Notes: generated from the sequence alone by a model not told the origin. Counted from the first letter of the stretch, positions 1,859-62,901 are shown. The stretch is 64,000 nt of DNA from Azolla caroliniana (GCA_043228905.1 JBHGNT010000014.1:2542001-2606000); one strand, 5' to 3'. Numbers and translations: made by a program.

Positions 1859-1859
1859 C

Positions 1860-4520: not shown

Positions 4521-4699
4521 CTCTTCCTTCTTCTTAAAGCTTCTTGTGTCATGTTTCTTAGAAGGGCCTTCATCTAGATCCTTCCTCTTCTACTTCTCAT
4601 CCACAAACACTTTGTGGGTTTCACATATGACCTCTTTGGAGATCGTGTTGTTATCAACTGGATCCGCCCACCCGGTAAGGTCTCGTACATGAAGGTTGG

Positions 4700-5104
4700 C
4701 TAGCTTTGCATCATCTGAATTAATCTTCCCTTTTTTTTGTATTTGAGGACGGTTGGCCAAAACCCCATTCCTAGTTTAATCATTCCAAGCTTCTCCTTCC
4801 CAATTCTTATACCGAAGGATGTGGCATACTGTATAGCTTCGACGTGGCTCGCATCAACCTCATCCATGATTTTCTTTAGACCCCTCCTACCGAAATTCAC
4901 TTGCAAGGGCTTTTGAGTCTCACTTGAGTGTATAATGTTGCCTTCCATGTAGACGAGGTTTTGTCGAATTGCCTCGTGAAGGCTACCACAATCTTTCCTT
5001 GCATGATCAACACTATCACACCATACACATTTATATGGGTCTTTCCCCTTCGGTCCTCGACGACTCATATTAGCTAATGAAAACGCTTCGAATTTTCGTG
5101 CCAA
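4700..5104 (-). pseudogene. G1 Gag zinc-knuckle fragment
   Basis: CVWCDSVDHARKDC matches the CX2CX4HX4C nucleocapsid motif. Confidence 0.8.
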
Positions 5105-5225
5105 CTCTTCAATAAAAGAGTTCCATTGCTCTTTCAGTCGGCTCGCTTTTTTTTCTCATCTCAGTTGCTATTGGAGCCTTCCTTCTTTGTACTACCGATC
5201 CTGCCATGTCGGAATCATCTAGCCA

Positions 5226-5834
5226 TCAACCACATGCTCTTCTTACCGCAACCCAATCTGTTATGAGACCATTGGGTTGTGCTTCGTCCTCGAATAGACT
5301 ACCTAGTTCTCGTCCATCTTTTGCATCCACCACCTTTAAGAAGTACAAAACTTTATATCCTTCGAGAAGTGTTTGGTCGGTTCTTGGGAGACGGTTGTAC
5401 ATTTGGTCAAATTCGTTGTACACTCCCGATGTGTTCATGTTCTTCCCCTTCTTCTTGATCCACTTCATCAACGTATGACGAGTCATCCTCGACGCATCTT
5501 CAAGCATATATTCAGCCAAAAGAGCCCTTTCAAATCCCACCCATGTTGTTTGGGCGGCTTGAATCTCCCTTATACGGCCTTGTAACCCAATTGCTACGAT
5601 ACGCTTGAAGCTTGATATTTCCTTCTCTTTGATGACATCACGTTGTTGCATCTCTATCTTGTATGTAGCGAGAAATTCCGTAATGTTTCTTCCACCAAAT
5701 TGTCCCGCTATCTCAACGGTTCCATCGATGGCCTTGTCTAAGCTTGCATCATTATCTCGAGCTCTCATCATATGCTCGACAATAGCCACCAACTTTGCCA
5801 CTTCATCAACTTGGGTGTTTGTCGAAGAAGCCAT
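5226..5834 (-). pseudogene. G1 Gag N-terminal (capsid-like) fragment
   Basis: The ORF starts just downstream of the PBS. GQFGGRNITEFLATYKIEM...WVGFERALLAEY aligns by eye with the family X Gag N-terminus. Confidence 0.75.
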
Positions 5835-5878
5835 CTTCTAACCTTCTATTTCAAGCACTTGATCCTTCCTACCACCTC

Positions 5879-5910
5879 TTCACGTCAGGTTCACCACGCT
5901 CACCGCACCT
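5879..5910 (-). promoter_or_regulatory. Tandem overlapping primer-binding sites of G1: tRNA-Phe (LTR-proximal) and tRNA-Trp
   Basis: On the plus strand, TTCACGTCAGGTTCACCA (5879-5896) matches the plant tRNA-Trp 3' end with 1 mismatch. CCACGCTCACCGCACCT (5894-5910) matches the plant tRNA-Phe 3' end with a terminal mismatch. tRNA sequences are from recall. Confidence 0.75.
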
Positions 5911-5916
5911 TAAAAA

Positions 5917-12005: not shown

Positions 12006-12897
12006 AGGCTGGACGGCAAAGAGAGTTGGCAAGGGTCGGTGTTGGGGCAAGGATTGCAGAGGCGTACGCAGCTCTCGAGGCGATGCTCGAGGAAGAGGAA
12101 AGATCGAGGTTGCAAGCCGAGACCGAGGAGACGGATTTGCCCCACGCGATGGCGGAAAACCGATACCACGGTACCACGGGAGAGGGTGTGGAACATAACG
12201 CCCTCTCGACGTGCGGAGAATTGCCGACCGAGGACAAGGTTGGGAGCGAAGAAGAGCCCTCCACACGGATTCCGGAGACTCCGGTGGTCGAGCCCGTGTG
12301 CCGACATGAGACCGGAGAGAAGGAAGGGGCCGACGAGGAGTCCTGGCATGATGCCAGCGAAGAGGGATGGGAAACGGCCTGCGAGGAGGCCAAGGACGGA
12401 GGCGGCATGAAAAGATCGGCATTCCGATACGGATGGAGCGTAATCCGGTCGTGGATCGTTCGATCGGGGCCGGATTCAACATGAAGGTGCCGATACGAGA
12501 GAGGGTGCGGGACGAGCCGCCCTCTTTTACATGGGGAGAAAGACCGACCGAGCGAAGGTCGGGAATTGGAAGGGAAGTGATCAAGGGTTCAGAACGAGTC
12601 TGGAGAGGTCGGCATCAGAGCCGAAACTCCGGACATTGGAGAACCAAGCCCAGGCGGGGCTTGGTTGATCACAGACCAGATGCTTCTCACCGAACGTGCT
12701 TGGGACCGGTACCCCGAACGAGTGTCCGCAAATCATTGCGGGGCGGAAACACCATGTCTTATCCGGAGACTCAGGCAACCGGCAACGAGAGCCGGCATGA
12801 GCCCCAAAGAGATGGGAGATGGAGGCGGGTACGCGAGAAGGAGAGCAACGACGAGTTCGGGAGAAGTACAAGGGATGAAGAGGAGAACGAAGACCGG

Positions 12898-15800
12898 TGT
12901 CGCGTAGTTACGCGCGTGCGTGTGGAAGGGGCGGGACCACGGGGGTCTTGGACTAGGGAGAAGAGGAGAAAGGTTAAGACAACGAATGGAAGATTAGCTC
13001 ATAGCTCAAGGGGAGAAGAGAACGCATATGACATTATGATAGAAGAAGAAGATGCAATCAAGATACTCAACAAGAAGTTCTATTAAGAAATGAATGATTA
13101 CAACAAATGGTGGCCGCCATGGCCGCACCAAACGACTACTCGAAACCCTAACCCTAACCCTAACGCTTGACCTACGTGGTATACCTCGCACACTCAAAAT
13201 AGGCAACCCCCACAATGGTGCCTTCTCTCTCCTTTTATAGCACAAGGAGGGAAGACCGCTTCCAAAGGTGAGACTAAAATATCCCCTTACATTCAAAGGG
13301 GATATTTGCCTTGATTTGGGGGAGGGTGAGATTGATGGCCCCTTAACTCCCACCTCCTCACAAACAACTAGGTAAATATGTACCGCATAGTACCTCTCTC
13401 TCTCTCTCTCTCTCTCTCGCGTAGATGTGCGTACTACCACATCACCTTTATACCTTTATTACTATTACAAATACATTATGTACGTGTGCAACGTTGCACA
13501 TCGCTCTTTGGCTCTCGTTGCTCGGGTTTCCGCTTGTGGACAAAAATCTTCACGACATCCGCCCCCACCTAACCGCACATCCTCCGGTATGTGCCAAAAA
13601 AGAGGGGAGAGAACACGAGATTTTCGGCCACGACGACCGGCCGAGTCCTTAGTGTCCTCGTGGGCCCGCCCGAATTTGTCTTCCACTTCGAGCAAGACCA
13701 CCCCGTCCACACGAACCGCCGCCGCCTTCCGGCCCACCATCCTTGCCGAATGGTCTCGAACCGTTGGCGTCGTCCGATCCGCCACACTCGATGATGTTCG
13801 CCAAGTCGTTGCCTCCACCCGATCCGCCACGTCCATCGTGGGTCCTTGAACCACCGACTACATCCGACCCGCCATATCCGATGCCCGTGCTTTCCTCCCC
13901 GTTCGGTCCTCCTGAACGTCGTCGCCGACCCGGTTGCTCTTCCTTTGTCCGCCTCGTATATCCTCCGGATGCGCTCCCGGTCGCATGCCGGATTCCGCCC
14001 TTTGCGTGCCGCACCCCTCGGCGTGCCGACTCTCTCTGCTCCGCGCTTGCCTTCCGTAGGCTTTCCCCGTATGTCGATGTTGCCCTCCGAATGCGTGCTC
14101 TTGCTTCGGTCCTTCGATGACCCCATCACGCGTTTTTCGTTTTCCCCTTTTTCGTCGTGCTCTCTCGTAGTAGAGCGTATCATCATCCCGACCTCCGTGT
14201 CGGTGTCCCTCGAGGCTCTCGTTATCGCCTCGCCTCGACTTGCGCCCTCTTGGCCCGCTTGGCTTTGTATGCCCTCCGGGAAGCCGCCGCGCTTTCTCTT
14301 CCCGGTATGTACCCCGTTGTCCTCCGCGCATCTCCTCCGTTTTCCTAGATACGACTCTCCGCTCATGCCGATCGCGCTCGGCCCATGCCGTCGATCTTGG
14401 TGTTTCACCGCACCGTCCTTCGTCCCGCGCTTGCCTCTCGAAGGCTTGACCCGACCGTCATCGTCGGTCAATCGTTGTCGCCCATCCGCCGTATGCATGC
14501 TTGTGTCTTGGCCCTCCACCGGCCGTATTGCATGTGTGTCGTGTCGTGCTTCCGCCGTAGACACGACCTCCGCGTCGGTCTCCAACTCCTCGCTGCCACC
14601 CACCGCTTCTTCGTTCTCCTTTCGATCCGCGACCGCCGATGCCTCACGGGTAGGTGTGGAGGGTTCCTCCCATTCTCGGTTCACCACCGAGTCCTCGCCT
14701 CTCAAAGGCTCAATCGGTCCACCGTTTTCGGTCACTCGTTGACGCTCTCTCGGATGCATGCTCGTTCTTGGGCCCTTCACCGACCATAGTGCATGCTTCG
14801 TGTTACGCCCTTCATCTGCCGTAGACCCGACCTCCGCGTCGGCCCCTTCTTCCTTTGTCACCGTAACCCGTTCCGACCCGAGCTCGCCATCTTGGACCCG
14901 CTCGTCCATCATCTCATACCGGATACCCGCTCCGATAACTTTGTCCGCTTCGGCCTCCGACTCCTCGCCGCCACCCGCCGTCTCTCCAGTCTCACGTTGA
15001 TCCGCAACCGCTGAAGTCTCTAGAATGGGTGTGGAAGTTCCCTCTCGCTCTCGGTCTTCTAGCAAACCGTGATCACCGTGCCCACTAGGCCTCCTTCTCG
15101 CTCTCACCGGCTCCCACCGTAACCGTACCCGGCTGGCTACGAATCGATCAAACAATCCCTGTCTTGCCGGCTTCCTTCGGTTCGTGCTCGGTTGACCGGC
15201 CCCCACTTCACTCTTCTTCCGCTCCGCCTCCCGGCCGGGTCGGATTATCGACCGGCTCATCTTTCGGTCGGGTCGGTTCCCGACTCGCTCCTTGATGCTG
15301 CTCCGGACCTCTCCTTCGGTCTTTTCGCACATGCCCACTCCGGGCCTCTCATCCTCACGGCCACCGCCCATCTCCCCGGTCTTATGTCCACGCTCGGGCG
15401 CAACCGCCGAAGTCTCTAGCCCCGGTGTCGAGGGATCTCGCCTCCGTCCGCTACAAACCTCCTCTTCGTCATTTCGGTTGCCCGCCTTGCCGCCGCCACC
15501 GTCCATCTCTCTAGGTCTCACACCGGCTCTCGGGCCGGTTGCCGGAGTCACTAGGACCGGTGTGTGGAAGGTCGCGGCACCGCCGCTCATCTCCTCTTCT
15601 TCCTCGGTTTCGCAAGCCTCGAGTATGCTTGCGAAATCCTCGTAGAACGTTTCGGGCAACCGCGTCCCGAAACTTTCGCCCACTCTCGAAGTGGCGTCCA
15701 TTGCTCCGTAGATATCGGCCTCATCCATGGCCGTCCTCTTTCCACAAGTCGAGAGGGTCGCTCGCTCCGCACCCTCTCCCACATCGTCGCCGTGGTCGTC

Positions 15801-17628
15801 CGCCTTGCCGCCGCCACCGTTCATTACCCTAAGTCTCACGCGGGCACTCGGGCCGGCCGCCGGGGTCTCTTGAACCGGTGCGTGTAAGGTAGCAACGCTG
15901 CCGCTCGTCGATGCTATGCCCGTAGCCACCTCCATTCGGACATCGTCGTCCGTGGCTACCCCGCCTCCGTATATGCAAGCATTAATTATGCTTGCCGCCT
16001 CCTCTTCCACGGTCTCCTTACCGTTGTCTCGGTTGCCCGCCTTGCCGCCGCCACCGTCCGTCACTCTACGTCCCACACCAGCTCTCGGGCCGGTTGCCGG
16101 AGTCTCTAGGCCCGGTGTGCGTAAGGTCGCGGCACCGCCGCTTGTCTCCTCCTCCCTCGATGTTTTGGGCCGCCATGTCCCGAATCCGTAGTCACCGGCC
16201 TCCATGGCCGTCCATTCACCGCAAGACAAGAGAGTCGCTCTTTTCGCACCCTCTCCCATGTCACCATCGTACGCTCTCCCGGCCTCCGTATAGGCCCCGT
16301 CTTCTACGTCTAGGGAGGCTTCTTCCTCCGCATCCTCTGATCGCTTCCGGCCCGTCTCCATAACAAGCCCTTCTTCGGCTCCGATTTTCGCCTTCACAAG
16401 CTCGCATGCCTCCTGTATTAGCACCTCTAGGTCGAGCTCCTCCGAACCGTTTTGCGTTGAGCTCTCTTCCGGCGGTAGTGCGTACCCACTCACTGCTCTC
16501 TCTTCTTCGTCGCTCGCGGGCCATGTTGTGGCCGGCCGCCTCGCATCATGTTGTCGGCACCCCCACCGATCGAACTCATGCCGACCTCTTCCTTCCAGTT
16601 CCGTGTACCCGTACGCCTCCAATAGAGCTCCCTCAAAGGACTCCCATGACTCGTGAGCTCCTCGTAGCTCCTTGACGTCCTTGTGCACCAATACGGCCGC
16701 CACTCGCGGAAAATACTCTAGTCGCATCGCCTCGTCCACGCCCCCTTTCGCCATCTCAGCCTTGTAGGCTCCCAAAATTTTTAGGACCTCATTCCCATTG
16801 AACCGGCCGACTCGATCGACCACCCTTTCGACGACTTGTTGAGCCGCATCTCGCTTCGCCATCTTCCGTCCGGCTTCCATCACGATCTTTGCCATCATCT
16901 CCTCGAAGTCAAAGTCTTCTTCCATCTCCATGCTCCCTTGCCTCCCTTCACGTCGGGTTCACCAAAGATGTCGCGTAGTTACGCGCGTGCGTGTGGAAGG
17001 GGCGGGACCACGGGGGTCTTGGACTAGGGAGAAGAGGAGAAAGGTTAAGACAACGAATGGAAGATTAGCTCATAGCTCAAGGTGAGAAGAGAACGCATAT
17101 GACATTATGATAGGAGAAGAAGATGCAATCAAGATACTCAACAAGCAGTTCTATTAAGAAATGAATGATTACAACAAATGGTGGCCGCCATGGCCGCACC
17201 AAACGACTACTCGAAACCCTAACCCTAACCCTAACGCTTGACCTACGTGGTATACCTCGCACACTCAAAATAGGCAACCCCCACAATGGTGCCTTCTCTC
17301 TCCTTTTATAGCACAAGGAGGGAAGACCGCTTCCAAAGGTGAGACTAAAATATCCCCTTACATTCAAAGGGGATATTTGCCTTGATTTGGGGGAGGGTGA
17401 GATTGATGGCCCCTTAACTCCCACCTCCTCACAAACAACTAGGTAAATATGTACCGCATAGTACCTCTCTCTCTCTCTCTCTCTCTCTCGCATGGATGTG
17501 CGTACTACCACATCACCTTTATACCTTTATTACTATTACAAATACATTATGTACGTGTGCAACGTTGCACATCGCTCTTTGGCTCTCGTTGCTCGGGTTT
17601 CCTCTTGTGGACAAAAATCTTCACGACA
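12898..17628 (-). mobile_element. Complete non-autonomous LTR retroelement X1 (Gag-like ORF only)
   Basis: The 660-bp LTRs at 12898-13557 and 16969-17628 differ at about 6 positions by eye. The 4-bp TSD CCGG is at 12894-12897 and 17629-17632, the tRNA-Trp PBS at 16947-16964 and the PPT at 13558-13569. Confidence 0.93.
13569..16931 (-). CDS. 1120-aa Gag-capsid-like protein with a long repetitive acidic/basic tail
   Basis: A single ORF fills almost the whole PBS-to-PPT interval. Its N-terminal ~110 aa align with G1 Gag. No PR, RT, RH, INT or CCHC motif was seen. Confidence 0.75.
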   Translation of the reverse strand: MEMEEDFDFEEMMAKIVMEAGRKMAKRDAAQQVVERVVDRVGRFNGNEVLKILGAYKAEMAKGGVDEAMRLEYFPRVAAVLVHKDVKELRGAHESWESFEGALLEAYGYTELEGRGRHEFDRWGCRQHDARRPATTWPASDEEERAVSGYALPPEESSTQNGSEELDLEVLIQEACELVKAKIGAEEGLVMETGRKRSEDAEEEASLDVEDGAYTEAGRAYDGDMGEGAKRATLLSCGEWTAMEAGDYGFGTWRPKTSREEETSGGAATLRTPGLETPATGPRAGVGRRVTDGGGGKAGNRDNGKETVEEEAASIINACIYGGGVATDDDVRMEVATGIASTSGSVATLHAPVQETPAAGPSARVRLRVMNGGGGKADDHGDDVGEGAERATLSTCGKRTAMDEADIYGAMDATSRVGESFGTRLPETFYEDFASILEACETEEEEEMSGGAATFHTPVLVTPATGPRAGVRPREMDGGGGKAGNRNDEEEVCSGRRRDPSTPGLETSAVAPERGHKTGEMGGGREDERPGVGMCEKTEGEVRSSIKERVGNRPDRKMSRSIIRPGREAERKKSEVGAGQPSTNRRKPARQGLFDRFVASRVRLRWEPVRARRRPSGHGDHGLLEDREREGTSTPILETSAVADQRETGETAGGGEESEAEADKVIGAGIRYEMMDERVQDGELGSERVTVTKEEGADAEVGSTADEGRNTKHALWSVKGPRTSMHPRERQRVTENGGPIEPLRGEDSVVNREWEEPSTPTREASAVADRKENEEAVGGSEELETDAEVVSTAEARHDTHAIRPVEGQDTSMHTADGRQRLTDDDGRVKPSRGKRGTKDGAVKHQDRRHGPSAIGMSGESYLGKRRRCAEDNGVHTGKRKRGGFPEGIQSQAGQEGASRGEAITRASRDTDTEVGMMIRSTTREHDEKGENEKRVMGSSKDRSKSTHSEGNIDIRGKPTEGKRGAERVGTPRGAARKGRNPACDRERIRRIYEADKGRATGSATTFRRTERGGKHGHRIWRVGCSRWFKDPRWTWRIGWRQRLGEHHRVWRIGRRQRFETIRQGWWAGRRRRFVWTGWSCSKWKTNSGGPTRTLRTRPVVVAENLVFSPLFFGTYRRMCG

Positions 17629-19668
17629 CCGGTCCTACGGAGATCCTCACACCGATCCGGTTGTCGGCCTGAGTGCTGGCATGAGTCCTATAGGAGAGGT
17701 CGGTGGCGACAGGAGAACGGGACCCGGCAATCCGAAGAATGACGAACGGACCCGAACAAGAACCGGGCGGAGCGAGCTCCCGGATAACCATTCCGGGAGG
17801 GAGGAAGAGACCAGGCCTACGAAGAGGCCAAGGACACGGTACGTCAGTACCACGGGAGAGGGTGCCGAGCAAACCGCCCTCTCGGCATGAAAGGCAAAGA
17901 ACTACGGATGGGCAGTCCCACGAAGATCCTCACACCGATCCGGCCTATAGGAGAGGTTGGTGGCGGCAAGTGAACGTGATCGGACGACAGAAAGCAGAGA
18001 AGGAAGGTATCAGGCCGGCAAAGCGGCTACGAACCGAAAGACCTACCGGCAAGGTCACGGGCGTAAGGAAGTCCGGTCCTACGGATCCCCACACCAGACC
18101 GGAGACCCCGGCAGTTCAGCCAACATGGCAACGTGAGACCTAGGGAGAAGGCTGGTGGCAGCGGGAAACGAGACCCGACTACGCGGAAGACACGAGGAGA
18201 GTCCGGGAGGGACTCAAACAAAAGACACCCGAATTTCGGCAAGCAACGAAACGAAGACCGGTCCTATGGGACCCTCACACCGATCCGGAGACTCCGGTAG
18301 TTCGGCCAACGTGGCAACGAGAGACCTAGGGAGAAGGATGGTGGCGGCAGGGAATGGGACCCGGCGACACGAGATAGCGGATTGGGAGTCGGTAAGACAG
18401 GGCGGACGAAGTGCGAAACCCTTACCGGCCGGTAACGGTTTCGGAAGGAACCGATAGGGGCAAACACGGGGAGGTGTGTCGGGGCCAGAAAGGCACACCC
18501 GGGACGGAACAAGAGTCTTGCAAGTGGCCATTGCGGGCCAGATCGAAGCGTGACTACAGGATGGAGTGCGGCACAAGCAGTGCCAAACAACGGACGAGGG
18601 TATGCGGCAAACGGAGGCGCTAGAGCGGAAAGGCGAGCGCGAAGACGGGTTGCATGGTTCGGAGGTAGCACGTAGATGGCCAGAGGAGGATCCTCCACAC
18701 CGTTTCGGAGGCCTTGGCGGTTCGAGCCGACGTGGCAACGTAAGACCATGGAGAAGGAAGGTAGCGGCGAGAGGACGAAGGCAACGCGAAACATGGGACG
18801 GCAATCAGGACAACACGAATGATCGACAAAGGCCAAGCGGGCCACTACAGGCATTCCTCAAGCGGAGGACATCAGGCATACGGCGAAGAGCGGGGCATGC
18901 ATACGGCTGAACAAGGGCCAGCGGAAGTACGCGTACTACGGAGATCGCGGCGAACGACCCATCGACGGGTCGAACGAGCCTACGGGGAGGTAAGCGCGAA
19001 GGAAGAACCGAAGCTGACGATTCAAACCGGCAGCAAGCCGGGATGTGGATTACGGTTGACTGGTTTCCTCACCGGCCGAAATCTCTCACCCTTCACCGGA
19101 TTTGGCACGTACCGGTGGTCGTGCGGTTTGGTGGGGGCGGATGTCGTGAAGAATTTCGGCAAGAAGCGGAAACCGGGAAATATTGGCTACGTCGACGGGG
19201 TGCAGCATATGCGCTCACCCTTGTACATTAAGTGTGAATAATGAGGGCGCCTTTATGACGCCGAAGAGTAGTCAAGTCGGGACAGAGAATCCCATGTAAG
19301 TCGGGATTTATCCCACATTGTAACGCATCTCCCTCCTTGTTCTATAAAAGGAAGGGAGCGCCTCTTGTGAAGGGGTTGCCCATTTTGTATTAGTAGGGTA
19401 TACCGTTAGACGGAAAGACGTTCTCTCTTTCTCTCTCTCTCTCTTGTTTTAGGGTTTCTTCTTCTTGCTCTCCTCTGCTTCTTCTTCTTCTTCGTCCTTC
19501 TGTGCGTCGAGCCTTGGCATCTAGCGTTCCAGTTTTCTGTCTTGTACTCTATGCAAGACCCCGCTCGGCGCAACAAGCCCGAGAGCTCCCCAACCGGCGG
19601 CTTGGCAGTAGACAACGGTTGTATCTCATGCGGCCTAGGTCCGGCTAGAAGTCAATGTTGAATCTCGT

Positions 19669-21193
19669 TGTCTTGTAAATACATATACATTTGGTTGTGC
19701 ATATTCGGGTCTCTATTGGTGTGCGTGTGCGTGTCTTAGTGTTTCTTTCTGGCTTATGTACATGTTCGTGCGAGAGTCAATGTTGCGTGCCTGCTCTCTC
19801 TCTCTCTCTCCCTTCGGTTGCTTCCGGTGTGCTCCTAGGGTGCCCTGGGAAAGGTGAAGCACGATTTCCTACACTCCGTTGTTGCGAAAATACGACGAGG
19901 ATACGCGAACTTGAGGCAGGATCCCGGGGCCTCCGACCAGAGGATAACGACATTCGTGCATTTATATTTTTAACAATTAACGGAAAGAAGAAATTTAATA
20001 ATTTTCATTAACAAAGGAAAAAGAAATTACAATATGTCCCAAGATTGGGATTTAGAAGTTTTAGATTTACTAAGATTAATAGAAAAGAAAAATTAGGGGT
20101 TTTGGTAGATATGGCTTCCGTAGGGAAAATTAGGATTAGGTTATATGAGTATTATGGCTTCCGTAGGGAAGATTAGGGTTTTTGAGTGTTATGGCTTCCG
20201 TAGGGAATTTAGGAATTATTAGAGTTATGGCTTCCCTAAGATAAGGGAGCTAAGAAGGAAAAGAAAAATAATATAATAGATGGAGAGCCTGAGTGTAAGA
20301 AGAAAAATGGAATATATATAGAGTTCTCCCTTGATCATAGCCTTTCCACTTTTTGTTGCATGGCCTCTACTTTTAGTTGCCTAGCTTTTTCTTTTAGTTG
20401 CATCTATTTTTAGTTGCATGGCTTTTTCTTTTAGTTGCATGTGACCGTCCACATGACCTTTACTTTTTGCATGCACTCCAACTTTAGTTGCTTGCGTCCA
20501 CATGGCCTTTACTTTAGTTCTCTTCACTTTACTTTAGTTTGTTGGATGATCCAATCTTTCGTCTGTAGCTGATTCCATTTTTTGCTTGTCGGCCGGTTCC
20601 GGTTCCAATTTTGTTTGCCAGCCGGTTCTGGTTCTGATTTGCTTGCCAGTTCCGGTTTTGCTTGCCGGCCGGTTTCCGGTTTGCATACCGGTTCTGGTTC
20701 CGGTTTTGCTTACCGGCCGGTTTCCAATTCCGGTTTGCTTGCCGGTTCCGGTTCCGATTTTGCTTATCGGCCTGTTTCCAATTTGCATACCGGCTAGTTT
20801 CCGGATTTGCTTACCGGACCCGTTTTCCAGATTTGCTTACCGGCCAGTTTCCGAATTTGTTTACCGGCCGGTTTCCGATTTTAGGGAATTTGGCCACCAT
20901 CCTCCATCAAGACAAAGTGGCCAAAGTGCTCTTAGCACAAATGAAAAATGAGGGAGCTCAAGGTGCTTATATAGCCAGGGCCTTAACTTTCCTATCTATG
21001 TGGGATAGTTTTAATTTCCCTATCTTCTCAAACTTTATTTTCACATAACTTGATATGTATTTCTCCATTTTGTATATAGTAAAATACGTTTTGAAGCTCT
21101 TGAGTATATCCATCTTTCTATAGTAAGCTACTAATCTAATCTATAATAATTATTTCATTATTTTTTACATAGTGTGTGAAGATTCACACGACA
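19669..21193. mobile_element. Solo LTR Y (about 1.5 kb) inserted in the 3' LTR of Z
   Basis: Ends are TGTC...GACA with a 4-bp TSD TCGT at 19665-19668 and 21194-21197. Removing it restores a contiguous X-type LTR end. Confidence 0.75.
20586..20880. repeat. CCGG-rich degenerate minisatellite inside Y
   Basis: Repeated units of the type TTTGCTTACCGGCCGGTTTCCGG. Confidence 0.85.
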
Positions 21194-21434
21194 TCGTCAC
21201 TCCCTAGTCCAAGACCCCCGTGGTCCCGCCTTTCTCCATGCACGCGCGTAACAACGCGACAACGTAAGTGTAACCCTTGCTAAGGAGTCGGTTGTAGCTG
21301 TCTCCCTTATACGTTGATAGGTTACAGGGAACATTCCCCTATGCATTACGCATAGACGCATATTCATTGTTCCACAACCACTTGGAGGTCTAAGTCGAAG
21401 GACTGACCGCGGACCGTGTTCCTAATTGGCAACA

Positions 21435-24400
21435 TGTCGACAGAGCTAACGACACAGCACTTGATGCGGCACACAAGGACTTCCCAGTGTGGGAACAAGC
21501 AACAAGCAGAGTGATGTACTACTTTGCGTCCAGTGTCAGAGACCAGTTGTTGAGCCATGTCCGAGATGCCAAGACGCCAAAAGAAGCTTGGGGAAACCTG
21601 AAGAAGGTTCTCACGGCAAGCACTATGGCCCGGAAGCTGCAACTCCGACAAGAGTTGAGCAATATCCGACAGAAGGACATGTCGGTAGCTGATTACACAA
21701 CCCGAATCAAAGAAATCTATGACTCACTTGCCTCTATCAACGTCATTGTAGAGGAAGATGAGATGGTGCAGATCTGTCTTAGGGGCCTAGAGTCTAAGTT
21801 CAGAGCGCTCCGAACGGCGGTGTGTACAAGGGAGAATACGCCGTCATTTTTTGACTTACAGTCGATGCTCCTTATAGAGGAGAACCACGTTGGTGCGTCA
21901 ACAAGTGCACCCATCGACAGCTGGATGTTGTACACGGAGGCGGATTGGCCCCGTGGGCGTGGTGTATGAGGCGGGTCGGCTCGCAATGGTAGCGGCCGTC
22001 AAGAGCAGGACCGAAGGCATAGAGAACGTGCCGACAGCAATTCCGAACCCTCCTCAAGCAGGGGGAGTCAAGGCGGCGCCGGAGGCCGGCAAGCAAAGGT
22101 TGACACGGAATGCTGGTATTGTGGTAAAAAGGGCCACAGAGAAAGCGAGTGATGAAAGAAGCGCGCCGATTTGGATAGATCCGGATCCGGCAAGGCTGGC
22201 AGAGAGAATCGGCAATACTCACACTACGCAGAAGGATCGGGAGGATCCAAAACCAGAAAAGTCGGTAAAGGGCCAGCCTTGGTGATGAAACACGAGGCTA
22301 ACTCGATGAAGAAGACCACTTCCAAATCGGAGGAAGTGTGGTATGTTGTTTCCGGTGTGTCGAATCACATGATGAGCCACAGAGAGTAGTTCTCTTTCCT
22401 GGAGAAACAGGAACAACCGGGAGTCATCAAAACCGGAGACGACACTCCTCACCCAATCGCGCATGTCGGAGAAGTCCCTTTGAGCCATGTTATACAAAGG
22501 GGGAAGTTGATGAACTTTTTACACGTTCCGACTATTACGAAGAACCTGGTGTCAGTCGGTCAAATCGTTCACCAGGGGATGCAGGTGTAGTTTATGCACC
22601 TTGGGTGCTTCATTGAGGAAGAGAGCCAAATTATTGCGCAAGGGCGCAGAGATGGGAGAATGTTCATCCTCGACACCAATGACGTCGGCACCGCTTTGTT
22701 CGCCAAAGGACAAAAGATTGAATCGGATATTGATCTTTGGCACAAGCAGATCGGCCATGTCAATTACCGGAGGTTTCAAGGCTTGCAAACGAAACAAGTT
22801 GTTTTCGGTTTGCCGAAGTTCAGTGGCCGGAAGGCCCAAATATGTGAAGCCTACCAACTCGGGAAGCAACACCGGTTTTCATTCCCCACCGAACGAAACC
22901 GTAGTCGTAACAAGCTCGACCTTATTCATTCGGATGTACGGGGACCGTCACAGAACGTTAGTCTTGGCGGGAGTCGATACTTCGTCTCCTTCATTGACGA
23001 CTACAGCCAGCACACATGGATCTACCTCATTGAGTGGAAGAGTGAAGTCTTCGAGTGCTTCTGGAACCTGCAAAGCCTAGTTGAATGGGAAACTGAGAGG
23101 AAGATCAAGTGCCTGCGGTCGGATGGCGGAAAAGAATATTTTTCCGGCCAATTCAATAGTTATCTGCAGCAAAAAGGAATTTGGAGAGAGTTCAACTACA
23201 TATACACACCGGAGCAAAACGGTGTGGCCGAGAGGAAGAACCGGTTGATTATTGACGCGGCAAGGACGATGCTGGGGGAGAAGAGCATGCCCAAATTCTA
23301 CTGGGCTGAGGCAATCCAGACGACCGTCTATATCCAAAACCGGATCGGTGACAAGGTGTCCGCGCATGAGCTGTATTTCGGGCGCAAGCCAAATTTGAGA
23401 CACCTTCAGATATTCGGTAGCATTGCATATGTGCATGTGCCAGATGAGAAGCGGAGGAAGTTGGATGTAAAGTCAGAGAAATGCATCCTAGTCGGTTACT
23501 CGCATGAGCAAAAGGGTTATAAGTGTTATAACCCCCGAACAAAGCAGGTCCGAGTTAGCCGGGATGTTGAGTTTGATGAGATGGCATCATGGTATGCCTT
23601 ACCGGCTCCGACTTCTGACCCCGACCCGATACTGGAGGATGAGGCTAGTGAGCTTGAACCGGTCCAATTAGAAGGCGAAGGGTTCGAGACTCTAGATGTG
23701 AGTCTGGAATAGTTTCGGTTGAGCGGGCCGAACAAGCGACTGGGTCAGACAGACCAGTCGGAAGATGAACCGGTGAGTATTGGAGACTCTACCGTGTTCC
23801 CCCCGCGCAAGGAACCGAGGAGAAGGTTCACGCACAAGGAAAAGGGGAAGAGGAGCACGAAATCGGAAATGGTGAGTCGGATCAGAGTGGATCCGACTCC
23901 GAGAAAGAAGAAGGCAGATCTTCGGCACCGAAGACCGAACCGGCCAAGAAGGGCCTCAAACCGGGTAACGATAAGTTACGTTGGTCTTCCAGCCAGAAGA
24001 ACCTCGTGAAGCAATATGGGTAAAATGAGTACATGGCCCATCACTATGTGTACATGACCAAGGTGGCGGAATTGTGTGAGCCGGAGATCTACGCAGAAGC
24101 GGCAAAGGACGCAAATTGGCATGTCGCTATGGAGGAAGAAATGCAGGCACTTGATGCCAACGACACATGGGACCTAGTTGACCCTCCCCGGCACTGTAAA
24201 CCGATCGGATGTAAGTGGGTGTACAAGGTAAAGCACAATGCTGACAGTTCGTTTAACCGGTACAAGGTCGGGTTAGTGGCGAAGGGATACACAGACCCAC
24301 GGAATTGACTACGACGAGACCTTCGCTCCGGTAGCGAAGATGACGACAGTTCGTGTGGTGCTGGCGGTTGTTGCGGCAAGGGGGTGGCATCTTCACCAAA

Positions 24401-25590
24401 TGGACGTGAAGAATGCATTTCTTCAAGGCGATCTTGAAGAAGAGGTCTTTATGACCCAACCCCCCGATTTCTAGTCGGAGATGAACAAGTCAGCGGTATG
24501 CCGGCTGAAGAAGTCACTTTATGGCCTGAAGCAAGCCACCCAAGCTTGGAATGCGAAGATCACGCACCGGTTGCGTAAGATGGGGTTTGCGGCCTCCAAG
24601 TCCGACTCTTCGTTGTTCATCCGGCAAGGTCCGGACGGTCCGGTTTGCATCTTGTTGTATGTTGATGATCTAGTCATCACCGGACCCGGACTCGATGAAA
24701 TCAGCCGAGTCAAGTCCCAGCTGTTGGACGCATTTGAGATGAAGGACCTGGGCGACCTTCACTATTTCCTTGGGATAGAGGTGATCCGAACCCCCAACGG
24801 CATATTGCTCTCACAAAGACACTATGTGTTGAATATGTTGTACAAGTTCGGTATGATGGAATGCCGACCGATCTCCACACCCCTGGACCGGAACCAGAAA
24901 CTCCGTCTCGACTCCAAACCGGCCTGCGATGAGAAGCGGTTCTGACAAATCGTCGGAAGCCTTATATATTTGACAATCACCCGACCCAACATCAGTTATC
25001 CGGTCGGCGTGATCAGCCAATATATGCAGAAGCCAACCGTGGAGAACCTTCTGTGCACGCATCAAATTTTGCAATATGTGAGCGGCACGAAGGACCAGGG
25101 ATTGTTATACCCGCATAGTATAACTGAAGAGCTAGTCGGCTACACCAATGCCGATTGGGTCGGCGATGCATCGAATCGCCGATCCACCTCCGGCTACATG
25201 TTTTCCCTTAGTAGCGCGGCTGTTGCGTGGTGCAACAAAAAGCAGCCAACAGTGGCCCTTTCGAGCACTTAGGCTGAATACCGGGGCGCTACCGTTGCCA
25301 CCTGTGAAGCCATTTGGCTTCGGCGACTGCTGCAAGACCTACGGATCGAGGTGCTGACCCCGATCCTGATCTACTGTGACAAAATAAGCAACATGTAGCT
25401 CGCTAACAACCCCGTATTCCATGCTCGCACAAAGCACATAGAAGTGCACTACCACTTCGTGCGTGAGTGTGTCCTGAGCGGTGAAGTCGAACTTTGGTAT
25501 GTTCATACGGATCGGCAAGTTGCCGACATCTTCACCAAACCGCTCGGGTCGGACAAGTTGCAACAGTTCACCAAAATGCTTGGTGTTTAG
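21435..25590 (+). pseudogene. Copia A gag-pol remainder (Gag, PR, INT, RT, RH) with stops and frameshifts
   Basis: Motifs include the CWYCGKKGH knuckle, HSDV..SDGGKEY..NGVAER (integrase), KSLYGLKQA, LYVDDL and RSTSGY..ADIFTK. Confidence 0.92.
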
Positions 25591-25608
25591 CATCTCGACA
25601 TGCCACAC

Positions 25609-26179
25609 TTTTGCTTTCAATTAGGGCTTCTTCTTCTTTTTTATTAACTTCACAGACAACTCTCTCTTATTCATATCAGCAACTAGAAACAAACTTCTCA
25701 GATCTCTGTACTGTTCTAATTTTCTTTATGAGCAACTCGACTCTGATACCATGTTACAAAGGCATTATGGTTCTTCTGTGTGCACAACGGATCGTGATGT
25801 GTTGGATTGTTTAGTGCTCAAGACAAAAAGGGGAAGGGGAAGGAGACTTACCGTTGCACAGTCCAAAAGCTTCTACTTCATTACACGCAGAGCTCAACTC
25901 GCTCTCGTCAATTTTCTGTTTTTCTGTTCTTAAAACTCTTTGCACTAATCTCACTCTTCTACACTTCTACTTCTACTTACTACACTTACTTTTTACCTAA
26001 GTACATAAGTGACTTATATATGCAACTAATTAGCTGTCTGTAGCTAAATAGTTGTGCATAGCTAAATAGTTGTTTCACCTTTATGTCCACTAGTAGCTAA
26101 TTAGCTAATAGCTACTATAGCTTATTTCTCAATAAGCATCACATACCTTTGTTGAGCTTGCTTCTCAACAATTTTGACA
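25609..26179 (-). mobile_element. 5' LTR, Met-i PBS and short leader of another LTR element; the rest is deleted
   Basis: CTCTGATACCA at 25741-25751 is a reverse PBS, followed by TGTTAC at 25752. The LTR ends at about 26170-26179, where the Penelope-like peptide breaks off. Confidence 0.6.
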
Positions 26180-26529
26180 TCTAAAAGGGAGTTATTGTAT
26201 GAACAAATAGATCTAAAGCCTATTGGGTTCTTATGGAGTTTCGGGAAGAAATAGATATTACAGACTTGGTACCCTTTCGAGGGTTTATGTAGTATGTAGT
26301 TGATTTTTATGGTGGATAAGGTACCTAGATGGTTGTTAAGAATGCTTTTCAATCTATATGATAACTCCTCAAGTGGATAGTGGGAGACTACTTTATAGGT
26401 ATTAGCATCGGAAAGGTGTTCTATAGCTTTGTTATAGTATGTGTCCTTGTTAAGAACACAAACTCCAACGTTTTTGTCGGCATGCAAGATTATGATTCTA
26501 TTGTTATTCTTAAGAGATTGTAAGGCTAG
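26180..26529 (-). pseudogene. Penelope-like element ORF, second part (pre-RT region)
   Basis: The peptide LQSLKNNNRIIILHADKNVGVCVLNKDTY...LSDANTY...YFFPKLHKNPIGFRSICS resembles the PLE DKG and PKxHK..RPIxS motifs. Confidence 0.8.
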
Positions 26530-26581
26530 TGTCGTGACTTGAGAATAGGAGAGAGAAAAATTAAGATGACAATAGAAGGTA

Positions 26582-26613
<32 letters not shown>

Positions 26614-26985
26614 ACACTAGAAATGGAAAGAGAGTTTATATTATAAGAGAGCAAGGATTACAAAGAGTAGGCTAAGGGGCTACAAACTGGTGTTAAACCA
26701 AATGAGTTGTGATGAATGAATAGACACCTATTTATAGGTCCTTATGGAGTATTCTAGAATGTTCTAGAATATTTTAGATATTTATGATATTTAATATAAT
26801 AATGGAATATCCTAGAATGTTCTTGAATACTCTAGAATGTTCTAGAATATTCTAAATATCTTGTAATAACTAATAATACATTTATCATAACTATGCATCA
26901 TATATGTTAGTATAATGGTTAAAGGTCTAACATATAGACCAAGACATCTTAGGCTCGAATCCTTGTAAGGCCAAAATGTATGTCG

Positions 26986-28723
26986 TCATGACATTATCCC
27001 CCCTTTTCGACGACGATTTCCACGAGTCGGAAGACAAGATTTCGGACTTGGCTTATGGGGATATTTGTTGTGAAATGCGGCAACCATTTTGGAGGCATTA
27101 GCAAGATTCTCAAGAGGTTCCCATGTTCGATCATTAGGTGTATAACCTAACCAGTCAACCAAATAATACATGTTGTTGCGAACGATCTTGGAGTCGAGAA
27201 TGGCAGCAACTTCATATTCGGAGCCATCCGAAACTTCGATTGGAGGTCGGGGAGATGTAAGACGGCCTGGAATAGAGTTGGTTGTGTACGGCTCCAAAAG
27301 TGAAACATGGAAGACCGGGTGAAGATGCATATGAGGGGGAAGATCAAGGCGAAATGCCACATCATTGATCTTACCAGATATCACATATGGGCCAAAACAT
27401 TGATAATCCAATTTGCTGCAAGGTCAGGTTGTTTTAATGTGACCTTGTAAAAGCCATACTCAATCTCCCACTTGAAACGTAGTCGATGAATCACGTCGAT
27501 GACGGTTGGCAACCTTCTTTTGAGTGTTTTGAGCATCACATAAATGGTGCATAAGGATATCTTGAACTTCTTGGAGTCGAGTGAGCCGATCTTCAGCAGT
27601 CGGGTTTGTCGGGAGTTCGAGATGTTCAAGCATAGTCCAACGAGGATGGTACCCAATGTTTGCAAAAAATGGGGAATATCCAGTAGAAGAATGTTATGAG
27701 TTGTTGTAAGCAAATTCCGCCAAATGTAATAGATCAACCCAATCATCTTGTTGATAGTTGATAAAACAATGAAGATATTGTTCTATTGTTTGGTTGGTGC
27801 GCTCACTCTGTCCGTTAGTTTCTAGATGGTGGCCGGAAGAGAGTTTACAAGAAGTATGTAAGAGTTTGAACATGTGTCGCCAAAATTTTGAGATGAACTG
27901 GGGACCCCAATCACTGATAATATCATCAGGAAGACCATGATGCCAAAACACCTCTCGCATGAGTAACTCGGCTGTCTCTTGGCTCGTAATGGCCTTGGTG
28001 CAGGGAAGAAAATGTGTCATCTTGGTAAAACGATCTACTACCGTGAGAATAGAATCAAAACCCTTGGAAGGTGGTAGATCCGTAATGAAGTCCAATGAAA
28101 TAGATTTCCATGGACTCTCAGGAATAGGCATTGGCTGTAATAAGCCATATGGATGATGTCGAGGTTTTTTGGATCGACAACATGTATCACAACTACGAAC
28201 ATAATCCGTAACAAAATGGCGAAGTCGTGGCCATCAATACCTTCGAGAAATTAATGTCAAAGTCTTGTGGATGCCGAAATGTCTAGCCATTGGTGTGTCA
28301 TGACATTGTTGCAAGACTTGGAGTCGAGAATGACCATCAGGCACATATAGGAGATTTTGTCAAAAAAGTAATCCATCATGCCAATTGAACTAGTTGTAGT
28401 CTTGACGAGGATTTTGAGATTGTGAACAAGAAGCATGATCTGGGATAATATGGTTCAGAATATCTTGGGCGAATTCATCAGTCTCAATATGCTCCCGAAT
28501 GGAGTCCAGAAGACTTGAACCCCCAAGTGTGTCTATAGCATGAAAAGCCATTAGTCATAGACGGTCGGGACCCAAGAGGATTTGCTTCTGACTTTCGAAT
28601 GTGGCCTCTCCTGGTTGAAGTTCCATATATGAACGCCGAGATAAAGCATCTACTTTTCCTTGTTGCATCCCAGGGCGATATAGAATTATGAAGTCAAAAT
28701 GAGTTAAAAACTGCGCCCAACGA
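26986..28723 (-). pseudogene. C integrase and chromodomain
   Basis: Motifs include PWKSISLDFITDLP, NGQSERTNQ, GPY and the chromodomain YEVAAILDSK..YYLVDWLGY..TWEP. Confidence 0.92.
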
Positions 28724-31700
28724 TGTCGTGAAGATTTTCATCCATAGGAGGAAATCGGGGTGGAATGAGCAAATCGGTGGTGTGTAACATGTGCACGTGT
28801 ATACTAGGAAATGGTGTGTAGAAAGAAGAGGGGAATTTTATCCCACATTGTAAGGTCCCTCCCTCCTTGGGCTATAAAAGGAAGGGAGGGGTCACTTATG
28901 AGGGGTTGCCTATTTGGAGGGAGAGAGGCATACCACTTAGGTCGAAGGTTTCCTATTCGGTTTTAGGGTTTCGGTTAGGGTTTTCTTCTTGGGTTTCCTT
29001 GAGGGTTTTACTATACCTCGCTACTTGCTTATCCTTCTAGGGTTTTTCTCTTAGTTTGGTGCGGTCCATGCGGCCACCATCGTTGTAATCAATCGTTCGT
29101 TTTAATATATCTTGTTGTGGATCTTGCTCCCATCTATTTTGGTCTATGCTTACGTGCTACTCTTCATCTTCTCATCCGGTGTTTAGTTTCCATTTCTCAT
29201 ATCTTATTCTTTCTCCTCTACTCCCTAGTCCAAGACCCCCGTGGTCCCGCCCCTTCTACACGCACGCGCATAACAACGCGACATCTTTGGTGAACCCGAC
29301 ATGAAGGGCGACAAGGGAGCATGGAGATGGAAGAAGACTTCGACTTCGAGGAGATGATGGCAAAGATCGTGATGGAAGCCGGACGGAAGAAGGCGAAGCG
29401 AGATACGGCTCAACAAGCCATCAAAAGGGTGGTCGATCGAGTCGGCCGGTTCAATGGGAACGAGGTCCCAAAAAATTTGGGAGCCTACAAGACCGAGATG
29501 GCAAAAGGGGGCGTGGACGAGGCGATGCGACTAGAGTATTTTCCTCGAGTGGCGGCCGTATCGGTGCACAAGGAGTTCAAGGAGCTACGAGAAGCTCACG
29601 AGTCATGGGAGTCCTTTGAGGGAGCTCTATTGGACGCATACGGATACGCGAAACCGGAGTGGGTATGCCGGCAACCCGATGGGGAGCGGTCGACAACAAC
29701 ACGGCCCGCGAGCGGCGGGGAAGAGAGAGCGGCGAGTGAGTACGCATTACCGCCGGAAGAGAGCTCAACGCAAAACGGTTCGGAGGAGCTCGACCTAGAG
29801 GTGCTAATAGGGGAGGCATGCGAGCTTGTGAAGGAGAAAATCGGAGCCGAAGAAGGGCTTGTCATGGAGTCGGGTCGGAGGCGATCGGAGGATGCGGAGG
29901 AAGAAGCCTCCCTAGACGTAGAAGACAGGGCCTATACGGAGGCTGGGAGAGTGTACGACGGCAACATAGGAGAGGGTGCAGAGCAAGCGACCCTCTTGCC
30001 TTGCGGTGAAGGGACGGCCATGGAGGCCGGTAACTACAGATTCGGGACATGGTGGCCCAAAACATCGAGTGGGGAGGAGACAAGCGGCGGTGCCGTGACC
30101 TTACACACACTGGTCCTAGAGGCTCCGGCGGTCGGCCCGAGTGCCGGCATGAGACCTAGAGCGACGGGCGGTGGCGGTGGCAAAGCAGGAAACCGAGACG
30201 AGGACGAGGACGAGGAGGTAGCAAGCATAACCGAGGCTTGCGTAACCAGGGACGAGATAGCCACGGACCACGGCGTCCGAACGAAGGTGGCTACAAACAT
30301 GGCATCGGCGAGTGATGGTACCGACACTTTTCCCACACCTATTCTAGAGACTTCGGCGGTCGGCCCCAAGAGCCCACATGAGACCAGAGAGACGGAAGGT
30401 GGCGGCGGCAAAGCGGACAATCGAAACAACGACAAGGAAGGTCATAGCGGATGGAGGAGAGACCCCTCGACACCGAGACCGGAGACTACGGCGGTTGCGC
30501 TCGAATGCCAACATAAGACCGGAGAGAAGGACAGTGGCCGTGAGGAGGCATGGCCCGGAGCAAACACGTGTGAAGATGAGGATGCGAGGCCCAGAACGGG
30601 CATATACAAGAGGACCGACGGAGAGGTTGGGAACGGCAAGGAGGAGAGAGTCGGGAACCGACCCGAATGGAATATGAACCGGTCGATAATCCGACACGAC
30701 CGGAAGACGAGGCGGAAGAAGATTGGAGCAGGGTCCGGTCAACCGGGCCCGAACCGAAGAAGAGCCGTGAAGACCGGATTTGTTTGGACAAACATGTACC
30801 GGCCAATTACAATCACAGAAGGGAGCCAACCAAACCGGAACTCAATCGGCCGAGACCGATCCAGGCGAAGGCTAAGTCGGCATGATTGGAGGTCGAGGCG
30901 AACGAGCCACAACACCCGGTGGGAACCAGTGAGCGCGAGAAGGAGGCCAAGCATGCGCGAGGATTACAACTCAGTGGGAGGCCAAGAGCGAGAGGAGCAC
31001 TCCACATCTATCCTTGAGACTTTGGCGATTGCGGATCAATGTAAGACCAAAGAGACGGCGGGTGGCGGCGACGAGTCAGAAGCCGGAATGGACAAGGATA
31101 ACGGAACGGGTATCTGATACGGGATGATGGACGAGCGGGCCCAAGACGATAAGCCAGGGTCGGAAGGGGATACGGCAACGAAGGGAGAAGAGGCCGACGC
31201 GGAGGTCGGGACTACGACAAGAGAAGCGTGTAACACGAAGCATACATTACGACGTAGGACGGAGCGTGCACTACGGCCGGCGAAGGGCCAAGAAGCAAGT
31301 GTGCATTCGGAGGAGCCGCAACGAGTGACCGACGATGACGGTCAGAGGAAGCCTTCAAGAGGCGAGCGCAAGACGACGGACGGTGCGACGAGATGCCAAG
31401 ATCGACGGAACGAGACGGGCGTGATCGGCATGAACGAAGGATTGTGTCTGGGAAAACGGAGGGGATGCGCGGAGAACAACGGGGTACACACCGGGAAGAG
31501 AAAACGCGGTGGCTTCCTGGAGGGCATGCAAGGCCAAGCGGGCCAAGAGGGCGAAAGTCGAGGCGAGGCAGTACCGAGAGCCTCGAGGGACACCAACACG
31601 AAGGTCGGGATGACGGTACGCTCTACGGCGAGAGAGCACGGCGGGCAAAGGAGAAGCAAGGAACGCGGAATGGGGTCGCCTAAGGGCCAAAGAATGAACG

Positions 31701-33080
31701 TGTATTCGGGGGACAACATCGGCGCGCAGGAAGAGCTTACAGAAGGCAAGCGCGGAGCAGGAAGAGTCGACACACGGAGGTGTTCGACACGCAGAGACGA
31801 TAAAACCAAAGGAGCAGCACGCAAAGGGCGGAAACTGGAGTGCGATTGGAGAGATCCGGAGCGCATCCGGAGGACATACGAGGCGGACCAAGAGGGTGTA
31901 CCTCGGGGCGAAGCGGCAACATCGGAGGTTGCGGAGGACACCGAAGATGAGAGCACCGATGCGGATGTCGGGGAAGCAACGCACCTTTTCGAAAGGGTAC
32001 GCGGAGCAAAGCGGAGTGCAAGACGTGCAATGTGGCCGCGTAAGGGCCGAGCGACGAGCACGAGGATGGTCGATGATGAAGTTTGGCGTGCGACAGTGCC
32101 GAGTCGAGGAAGCAGTCGAGGCAAGACAAGCATGGACGAGGAGGAGCACATGGTGCAATGTCCGGCAAACAATCGGGAAGAACGAGGATTCGGCCCAAGG
32201 TCGCAGGTGGAAAACGAAGGAAGCCGAAGAAAGGTGTGCAAAGGTCGGGTCTGGCGAATCGGGCGGAGATAGTGGTTCGGCGAACTCCGTCGAGTATGGT
32301 GGATCAAATGGAGCCGACGGTTCGAGAGCATACGACGGATATGGCGGACCGGGAGGCTACGGTGGTCCATGTGGGACGGATGGGCTTGCTCGAAGTAGAA
32401 GACGAAGTCGGGCAAAGCTGACAAAGACGCTAAGGACTCGGTTGACCGCCATGGCCAAAAATCCTACCTCTTTCCCCTTCTTGGCACATACCGGTGGATG
32501 TGCGGTTTGGTGGGGGCGGATGTCGTGAAGATTTTCATCCATAGGAGGAAACCGGGGTGGAATGAGCAAATCGGTGGTGTGTAACATGTGCACGTGTATA
32601 CTAGGAAATGGTGTGTAGAAAGAAGAGGGGAATTTTATCCCACATTGTAAGGTCCCTCCCTCCTTGGGCTATAAAAGGAAGGGAGGGGTCACTTATGAGG
32701 GGTTGCCTATTTGGAGGGAGAGAGGCATACCACTTAGGTCGAAGGTTTCCTATTCGGTTTTAGGGTTTCGGTTAGGGTTTTCTTCTTGGGTTTCCTTGAG
32801 GGTTTTACTATACCTCGCTACTTGCTTATCCTTCTAGGGTTTTTCTCTTAGTTTGGTGCGGTCCATGCAGCCACCATCGTTGTAATCAATCGTTCGTTTT
32901 AATATATCTTGTTGTGGATCTTGCTCCCATCTATTTTGGTCTATGCTTACGTGCTACTCTTCATCTTCTCATCCGATGTTTAGTTTCCATTTCTCATATC
33001 TTATTCTTTCTCCTCTACTCCCTAGTCCAAGATCCCCGTGGTCCCACCCCTTCTACATGCACGCGCGTAACAACGCGACA
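28724..33080 (+). mobile_element. Complete non-autonomous LTR retroelement X2
   Basis: The 560-bp LTRs at 28724-29283 and 32521-33080 differ at about 7 positions by eye. The 4-bp TSD ACGA is at 28720-28723 and 33081-33084, the Trp PBS TGGTGAACCCGAC at 29288, and the PPT GGTGGGGGCGGA precedes 32521. Confidence 0.93.
29321..32272 (+). pseudogene. X2 Gag-like ORF (about 983 codons) with a single in-frame TGA at 31115-31117
   Basis: ORFs 29321-31117 and 31124-32272 share one frame. X1 has Arg at the stop position (GIRYEMMDER versus GI*YGMMDER). Confidence 0.8.

Positions 33081-57994: not shown

Positions 57995-58049
<55 letters not shown>

Positions 58050-62844: not shown

Positions 62845-62901
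<57 letters not shown>

Follow-up and report, generated by a model that had tools for sequence, protein, structure and literature searches.

Two elements in a 64,000-nucleotide stretch of Azolla caroliniana DNA (GCA_043228905.1 JBHGNT010000014.1:2542001-2606000; hereafter the window, with positions counted from its first letter) raise the question of why a long terminal repeat (LTR) retrotransposon that encodes no enzymes, and that has lost half of its capsid, should keep one reading frame open almost throughout its interior. The elements, here named X1 and X2, are real and recent pol-less LTR retrotransposons. We suggest that their frame is most likely kept because ribosome passage along the whole RNA, and not the protein, aids survival or packaging, an explanation to which we give about an even chance. 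The features of the two elements are as follows (ORF stands for open reading frame, PBS for primer-binding site, PPT for polypurine tract and TSD for target-site duplication).

12898..17628, minus strand: element X1, complete non-autonomous LTR retrotransposon, 4731 bp
16969..17628, minus strand: X1 5' LTR, 660 bp, TG..CA, 6 mismatches to the 3' LTR
16947..16964, minus strand: X1 PBS, 18 nt, the same site as in the autonomous-type element of the window
13569..16931, minus strand: X1 ORF, 1120 aa, stop 11 nt ahead of the 3' LTR
16602..16931, minus strand: X1 capsid N-lobe, aa 1-110, the sole confidently folded part
near 16565, minus strand: in-frame loss of the X1 capsid C-lobe, 222 nt
13572..16560, minus strand: X1 repetitive tail, predicted disordered, last fifth basic, W/R-rich end
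13558..13569, minus strand: X1 G-rich PPT-like site
12898..13557, minus strand: X1 3' LTR
12894..12897 and 17629-17632: X1 TSD, CCGG, NCGN type
28724..33080, plus strand: element X2, complete, 4357 bp, within the RNase H part of a chromovirus
28724..29283, plus strand: X2 5' LTR, 560 bp, TG..CA, 7 mismatches to the 3' LTR
29288..29305, plus strand: X2 PBS, 18 nt
29321..32518, plus strand: X2 frame common with X1, with stops at 31115 (TGA), 32270 (TAG) and 32396 (TAG)
near 29657, plus strand: in-frame loss of the X2 capsid C-lobe, 249 nt
32509..32520, plus strand: X2 G-rich PPT-like site
32521..33080, plus strand: X2 3' LTR
28720..28723 and 33081-33084: X2 TSD, ACGA, NCGN type

A preliminary description made from the sequence had called both elements complete, with LTRs about 99% identical, and the mismatch counts (6 of 660 and 7 of 560 positions) agree. 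The 4-bp TSDs were also borne out, and the empty sites are consistent with them, that of X1 being a match to a sister repeat of the older host element (X0, see below) and that of X2 the RNase H end of the chromovirus. The ORF does start 15 nt after the PBS, where the first ATG lies in X1 and X2, and that of X1 does reach the PPT. The single stop reported for X2, however, proved to be three, and X2 as it stands encodes 598 aa. Both elements carry what is expected of intact LTR elements (two TG..CA LTRs, TSD, PBS and PPT) and no protease, reverse transcriptase, RNase H or integrase. There is no CCHC knuckle, no Pfam family was detected in either ORF at E<=0.05, and none of eight pol or gag-pol stretches of the window matched them in tblastn. 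The near-identical LTRs, single Gag ORF and lack of enzyme domains agree with a recent Gag-only non-autonomous family, as had been proposed. The PBS is putatively of the tRNA-Trp type. The LTRs of X1 also contain telomere-like AAACCCT/AACCCT repeats (13147-13166) and a long CT run (13394-13418).

Preservation of the frame was evident from both indels and stops. Indels were counted from nucleotide alignments, with flanks of at least 20 nt at 65% identity required, and 28 of 31 in the ORFs of five pairs had a length divisible by three, versus 6 of 34 in LTR pairs. The five ORF pairs (X1-L001, X2-L007a, L005-L007b, L015-L017b and L019-L021, the L numbers denoting relatives) were taken out of 19, which limited sequence reuse; the LTR pairs do reuse sequences. 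Between X1 and X2 alone, 6 of 10 indels were multiples of three and the remaining ones fell into compensating sets, in line with the earlier remark that these copies keep the frame despite many indels. Among contigs aligned on X1, 11 of the 12 small indels listed (out of 19) were located in the LTRs. New stops were compared with a null in which the observed substitutions were re-placed at sites with the same trinucleotide: six pairs of open ORFs had none, where 5.7-11.5 were expected, X1-X2 had three against 10.9, and X2-L007a had two against 6.9, and the other two frames mostly agreed with the null. In addition, 37 family loci were fetched from a metagenome scan by a short peptide pattern, and in 9 of 11 PBS-to-LTR regions, representing five subfamilies, a single ORF, 618-1419 aa long, spanned the interior and stopped 11-107 nt short of the LTR. 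This count excludes L032, where no LTR start follows the PPT match, and the duplicate outer PBS of L024.

Could the frame be open without selection, as an outcome of base composition, of repeats with a length of 3n and of the choice of open ORFs? The tails are T-poor (11-18%), and the ORFs of the pair tests were partly picked as open, so the P values of the stop and indel tests make the evidence look stronger than it is. However, the 9 of 11 count is independent of that choice, and those loci were fetched by the peptide pattern; read in its other frames, the same DNA contains 19-44 stops (44 and 32 in the other two sense frames of X1); and the context-matched null predicts 6-12 new stops per pair. 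We therefore consider an absence of selection very improbable and already largely refuted. High GC content, which the preliminary description had named as a possible trivial cause, was ruled out by the frame-biased indels, the purged stops and the stop-filled other frames; ORF GC ranges from 46 to 63% across the family, and relatives with 46-50% are open too. An antisense ORF was also rejected, as the reverse frames contain stops and show no consistent constraint.

The protein itself appeared to be close to neutral. A pairwise codon model gave a ratio of nonsynonymous to synonymous rates (dN/dS) of 0.90 (0.79-1.02) for the tail, over 2104 codons in four disjoint pairs, with 1.0 (0.86-1.21) in GC-rich pairs and about 0.95-1.0 in X1-X2. 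The same model does detect selection, since whole capsids gave 0.35 (0.26-0.53). In a context-matched test, the tails showed neither a synonymous excess nor a deficit of charge- or hydrophobicity-changing substitutions in 8 of 8 comparisons, whereas capsids had a synonymous excess in three of six. The N-lobe of X1 had a dN/dS of 0.85-0.9 with wide intervals, and X1-X2 differences there (dN/dS 0.88) were distributed over codon positions as 7/8/10, with no third-position excess. Because tail dN/dS is about 1 while stops and frameshifts are purged, constraint seems to act on the frame and not on the protein sequence. The earlier proposal that the tail is under coding constraint thus holds for the frame and not for the protein, at least in the X1/X2 subfamily. 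Of the outcomes named as speaking against that proposal, a dN/dS of about 1 was found for the X1/X2-subfamily tail, and frame-random indels were not found.

Translation to the RNA end is the simplest reading of this pattern, because a stop after the capsid would be harmless, yet 1-3.5 kb behind the capsid stays open, even where half of the capsid is lost. The 5' LTR would drive transcription of X1/X2 RNA, ribosomes would read this RNA through to its end, and an autonomous helper would provide the particle, the reverse transcriptase and an integrase that prefers NCGN. RNAs with an early stop would have 2-4 kb free of ribosomes and would be copied less often, being lost through decay, through silencing (translation-linked silencing is reportedly known for EVADE) or through a poorer hand-over from translation to helper Gag. 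Subfamilies whose capsid is whole may still produce it under selection, and X1 and X2 would represent a later, more parasitic stage. It is further conceivable, with a likelihood somewhat short of even, that the long ORF serves as a decoy. It would then be a runway for ribosomes, 2-4 kb in length, built from repeats and open for translation alone, by which RNAs without enzymes or even a capsid could escape the RNA surveillance of the host and enter helper particles.

Several observations weigh against a role for ribosome passage alone. Low-GC tails are mildly constrained (dN/dS 0.70; 0.58-0.90), the lone C-lobe of L005 has a dN/dS of 0.55 (0.35-0.85), and half-capsids are better conserved than tails at the protein level in five of seven pairs (p<0.05). 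A W/R-rich motif stands ahead of the stop in 17 of 29 proteins, some ORFs ending straight after it. The choice of open ORFs for the pair tests, mentioned above, and the probable collapse of repeats in metagenome contigs also count here. Two of the 11 PBS-to-LTR regions, L034 and L035 (coverage 35 and 25; about 97% alike and from two samples), are frameshifted throughout gag and tail and have seemingly multiplied as non-coding elements; therefore, an open frame is at best advantageous and not required. As for the route of RNA loss, plain nonsense-mediated decay (NMD) is argued against by accounts of moss, in which long 3' untranslated regions are not predictive of NMD (PMC6009662, PMC6173133), and by the description of Copia as an indirect NMD target (PMC3962487).

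With regard to the capsid, the first approximately 110 aa had been described as Gag-like. They are indeed capsid-related, but comprise the N-lobe only, most of the C-lobe being gone in both copies through in-frame deletions (222 nt in X1, 249 nt in X2) with different left break points. The N-terminal 211 aa of the relative L001 gave a confident model (mean predicted local distance difference test, pLDDT, 86.5) with two lobes, resembling Arc, Ty3, copia and retroviral capsids. The best match was dArc1 (Z 9.8; root-mean-square deviation, rmsd, 8.6; 159 residues aligned); against Arc, the N-lobe gave Z 8.9 (rmsd 1.9, 69 aligned) and the C-lobe Z 8.4 (rmsd 3.1, 81 aligned). Foldseek returned nothing for this capsid at E<=0.001 (best E 0.21), and a sequence search against solved structures returned nothing below E 0.1. 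Pfam gave a single weak match among 28 members of the capsid alignment (Ty3_capsid, E 0.002), and Atlas scoring assigned Retrotrans_gag to L001 with 0.94. By its model, then, the whole capsid of L001 has the two-lobed retroelement capsid fold of Arc, Ty3 and copia. The X1 model was confident for aa 5-110 only, with 990 of 1120 residues at pLDDT <50. Since X1 and X2 both miss half of the capsid, the idea that their Gag co-assembles with helper particles is weakened.

Across the family, the lobes come and go while the frame persists. Among 32 proteins scanned, three were of the autonomous type; the other 29 bear a tail, and of these 18 have both lobes, four the N-lobe only and seven the C-lobe only, with a knuckle in none. 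Three of the seven C-lobe-only proteins, seen as protein sequence only, may be gene-calling artefacts; L005 and L019 were confirmed from DNA. Subfamilies that lack the N-lobe, or have swapped in a helper-like capsid, still read through to near the PPT. In one relative of 1518 aa (P0121), the post-capsid region is duplicated in frame late in the tail.

These data bear on the possibility that only whole-capsid elements are selected as masters, and that half-capsid X1 and X2 are passengers that receive an open frame from these masters by frequent recombination. The divergence between X1 and X2 is 7% in the capsid part and about 19% in the tail, which points to mosaic ancestry; the same tail also follows helper-like capsids (four proteins about 60% identical to the autonomous-type Gag of the window, versus 24-31% for six others); and X2 has three stops. 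On the other hand, such a scheme leaves unexplained the 1-3.5 kb that masters hold open past the capsid. A deletion of the X2 type is also seen in several contigs, as loose ends, and in the diverged proteins P0011 and P0075, and the lobe deletions checked at the DNA level (X1, X2, L005 and L019) are all in frame. The X1 deletion junction was bridged by no piece among the matches listed. Overall, we regard this explanation as unlikely.

The tail, about 430 to 1220 aa long across the family, contains the repeats named earlier (TP(G/I/V)LET(S/P)A, DGGGGKA(G/D)NR, GEGAERATL and WRIG). Tandem Repeats Finder detected no array within the X1 or X2 ORF, the repeats being dispersed, and the disorder check predicted a disordered tail, as the preliminary description had suggested. 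A protein role could be envisaged here: either capsid lobe would stick to the helper lattice, the disordered tail would serve as a linker whose sequence is immaterial, and the C-terminus, basic and W/R-rich, would bind the element's own RNA in place of the zinc knuckle, the frame being open to deliver that end. Basic, knuckle-free RNA-binding ends occur in foamy-virus and Ty1 Gag. Consistent with this, a net positive charge (+5 to +33) was seen over the final fifth of the tail in 8 of 8 ORFs, the W-motif lies near the end as noted above, no listed protein lacks both lobes (although the searches required capsid or tail similarity), and residual constraint is seen on the lone C-lobe and on low-GC tails. 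However, charge-changing substitutions are not depleted; C-terminal dN/dS is 0.58-1.41, none significant and with low power; and the X1-X2 N-lobe has no third-position excess. The motif is conserved as DNA past the stops in L017b and L021, its variable sites are as many at first as at third positions (13 of 21 each), and the +1 frame is open. We regard such a tether as the main alternative, though less likely than not. For the same three reasons, the W/R-rich end may instead be an RNA motif, perhaps an RNA G-tract signal near the PPT. This end (13640-13830, minus strand, and its relatives) consists of consecutive NGG triplets and, in the +1 frame, would encode a Gly-rich peptide.

The family is large. 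Contigs matching X1 numbered 7,092-10,032 in each of four contig-only runs, some relatives are shorter than 4 kb, and no relatives were found in viral contigs. A second PBS follows the 3' LTR in L005, L007, L017 and L034, as in head-to-tail or LTR-sharing tandem elements; L017 unites two different subfamilies.

Judged from sequence features, TSDs, primer site and Gag tie X1 and X2 to the Phygy lineage of non-chromovirus Ty3/gypsy elements; lacking pol, X1 and X2 themselves offer no reverse transcriptase, RNase H or integrase for phylogenetic placement. Both TSDs satisfy the 4-bp NCGN rule of Phygy, the PBS matches that of the autonomous-type element and, if of the Trp type, would fit as well, and the Gag is homologous to that of a DUF4100-bearing element in the window and to knuckle-bearing polyproteins, the named ones being from one fern and one liverwort. 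Among 186 Phygy elements described by Neumann et al. (2019, PMC6317226), all had a 4-bp NCGN TSD and 81% a Trp PBS. In contrast with Phygy elements, given there as 7.7-10 kb with a polyprotein, X1 and X2 are 4.4-4.7 kb and lack pol and knuckle. Because of their size (4731 and 4357 bp) and lack of pol, they are better regarded as Phygy derivatives than as members. Phygy elements have also been reported nested inside Tcn1 chromoviruses in moss (PMC6911290), and X2 likewise sits in a chromovirus.

The remaining parts of the window that concern this family are the following.

803..5896, minus strand: decayed autonomous-type relative, candidate helper lineage
5879-5896, minus strand: PBS of the autonomous-type element
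5229-5837, minus strand: homologous capsid of the autonomous-type element
12006..19952, plus strand: X0, older decayed relative and insertion host of X1, outer limits approximate
12006-12897 and 17633-19141, plus strand: X0 tail pieces, followed by PPT and 3' LTR from 19142

The autonomous-type element carries a CCHC knuckle, DUF4100, protease, reverse transcriptase motifs and integrase, and shares an X-like LTR end and PBS; its capsid is 27% identical to that of X1 over 114 aa (E 1e-12, within-window search). The gap between LTR end and PBS is about 20 nt in it (5897-5916), versus 2-5 nt in the non-autonomous elements. The interval 12898..33080 had been given as the span of the family; X1 and X2 do lie at its ends, but about 11 kb between them is other material, and an older relative, a copia element and the chromovirus were identified there. 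Nesting is deep from 6635 to 25600, where a gypsy element, with an LTR near 7279-7716 and a partial copy at 21261-21434, seems to interrupt the gag of a copia element and in turn contains X0, X1 and an AT-rich stretch. At 21199-21261 lies an isolated X-family LTR 3' end, followed by ACGT, again of NCGN type. In another copia element (57722-63247, minus strand), the LTRs are about 97% identical and a repeat of 54 nt lies near 58191-58481. CG density reaches 108/kb in the X1 ORF region (13560-16960) versus 18/kb at 37-56 kb of the window, and the observed-to-expected CpG ratio is 1.2-1.3 in GC-rich tails. Because the lineage inserts at NCGN and the tails are rich in CG, GC-rich tails may serve as landing pads for relatives; X1 itself is inserted in one.

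Gag-only elements are usually read as preserving a useful capsid, and here the frame outlasts both the capsid and the amino-acid sequence. If ribosome passage is indeed what is selected, the family would be a natural example of frame selection without protein selection, a transposon case separating the need for translation from the need for protein, and a model for the origin and persistence of long, disordered, Pfam-less ORFs. Its hundreds of natural variants could be used to ask how plants discriminate parasitic from normal RNA. Annotation should also be made with caution, since domain-based tools for transposable elements miss such elements, which are then called as hypothetical proteins of 600-1400 aa. 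The literature gave no description of Phygy derivatives that are non-autonomous, nor of an LTR element selected for its frame only, although Repbase, REXdb files or genome-paper supplements could hold the family under a library name.

A parallel may be found among viruses, and if the ORF is such a decoy, the family would correspond, in a genome, to those defective viral RNAs that depend on translation. Accumulation of a clover yellow mosaic virus defective RNA reportedly depends on coding capacity (White et al., 1991, 1992), and defective interfering RNAs of mouse hepatitis virus keep a fused open frame; some coronavirus defective RNAs, on the other hand, are said to need no long ORF. Like these RNAs, the X family appears to consist of helper-dependent deletion derivatives with the frame kept, and the signature of translation dependence, a frame kept while the encoded sequence is free, was found here in evolutionary terms. 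The viral RNAs are cytoplasmic and were tested by mutation, whereas the X family is an integrating retroelement viewed through its evolution. Single-lobe Gag products are also known from p22, a truncated-Gag restriction factor. Another such factor, Drt2 (PDB 9rxy), was among the structure-comparison matches; restriction factors inhibit, whereas the half-capsid elements are themselves mobile.

Among plant elements, X1 and X2 resemble TR-GAG elements, as far as described by Chaparro et al. (2015, PMC4350172), in being non-autonomous, with LTR, PBS and PPT intact, one Gag ORF and no protease, reverse transcriptase, RNase H or integrase. TR-GAG1, however, is copia-type (UBN2), encodes 433 aa with a zinc finger, and has a Leu PBS, a 5-bp TSD and a length of <4 kb (PMC4350172), whereas X1 and X2 are Ty3-type, 4.4-4.7 kb long, with a 4-bp TSD, half a capsid and no knuckle, in a family with a near-neutral tail of 430-1220 aa. 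The comparison with TR-GAG proposed earlier thus stands for the Gag-only, enzyme-less organization and fails for size, TSD and a complete capsid. It should be noted that labels of this kind are seen as a continuum in a 2026 survey (PMC13570524). Finally, for Ty1, Doh et al. suggested that a stable RNA requires some translation and not a stable Gag, and that RNA under translation is taken up by Gag in trans (PMC3945221). A similar link of translation with RNA stability and trans packaging is what we propose for the X family, which is non-autonomous, whereas Ty1 is autonomous and copia-type.

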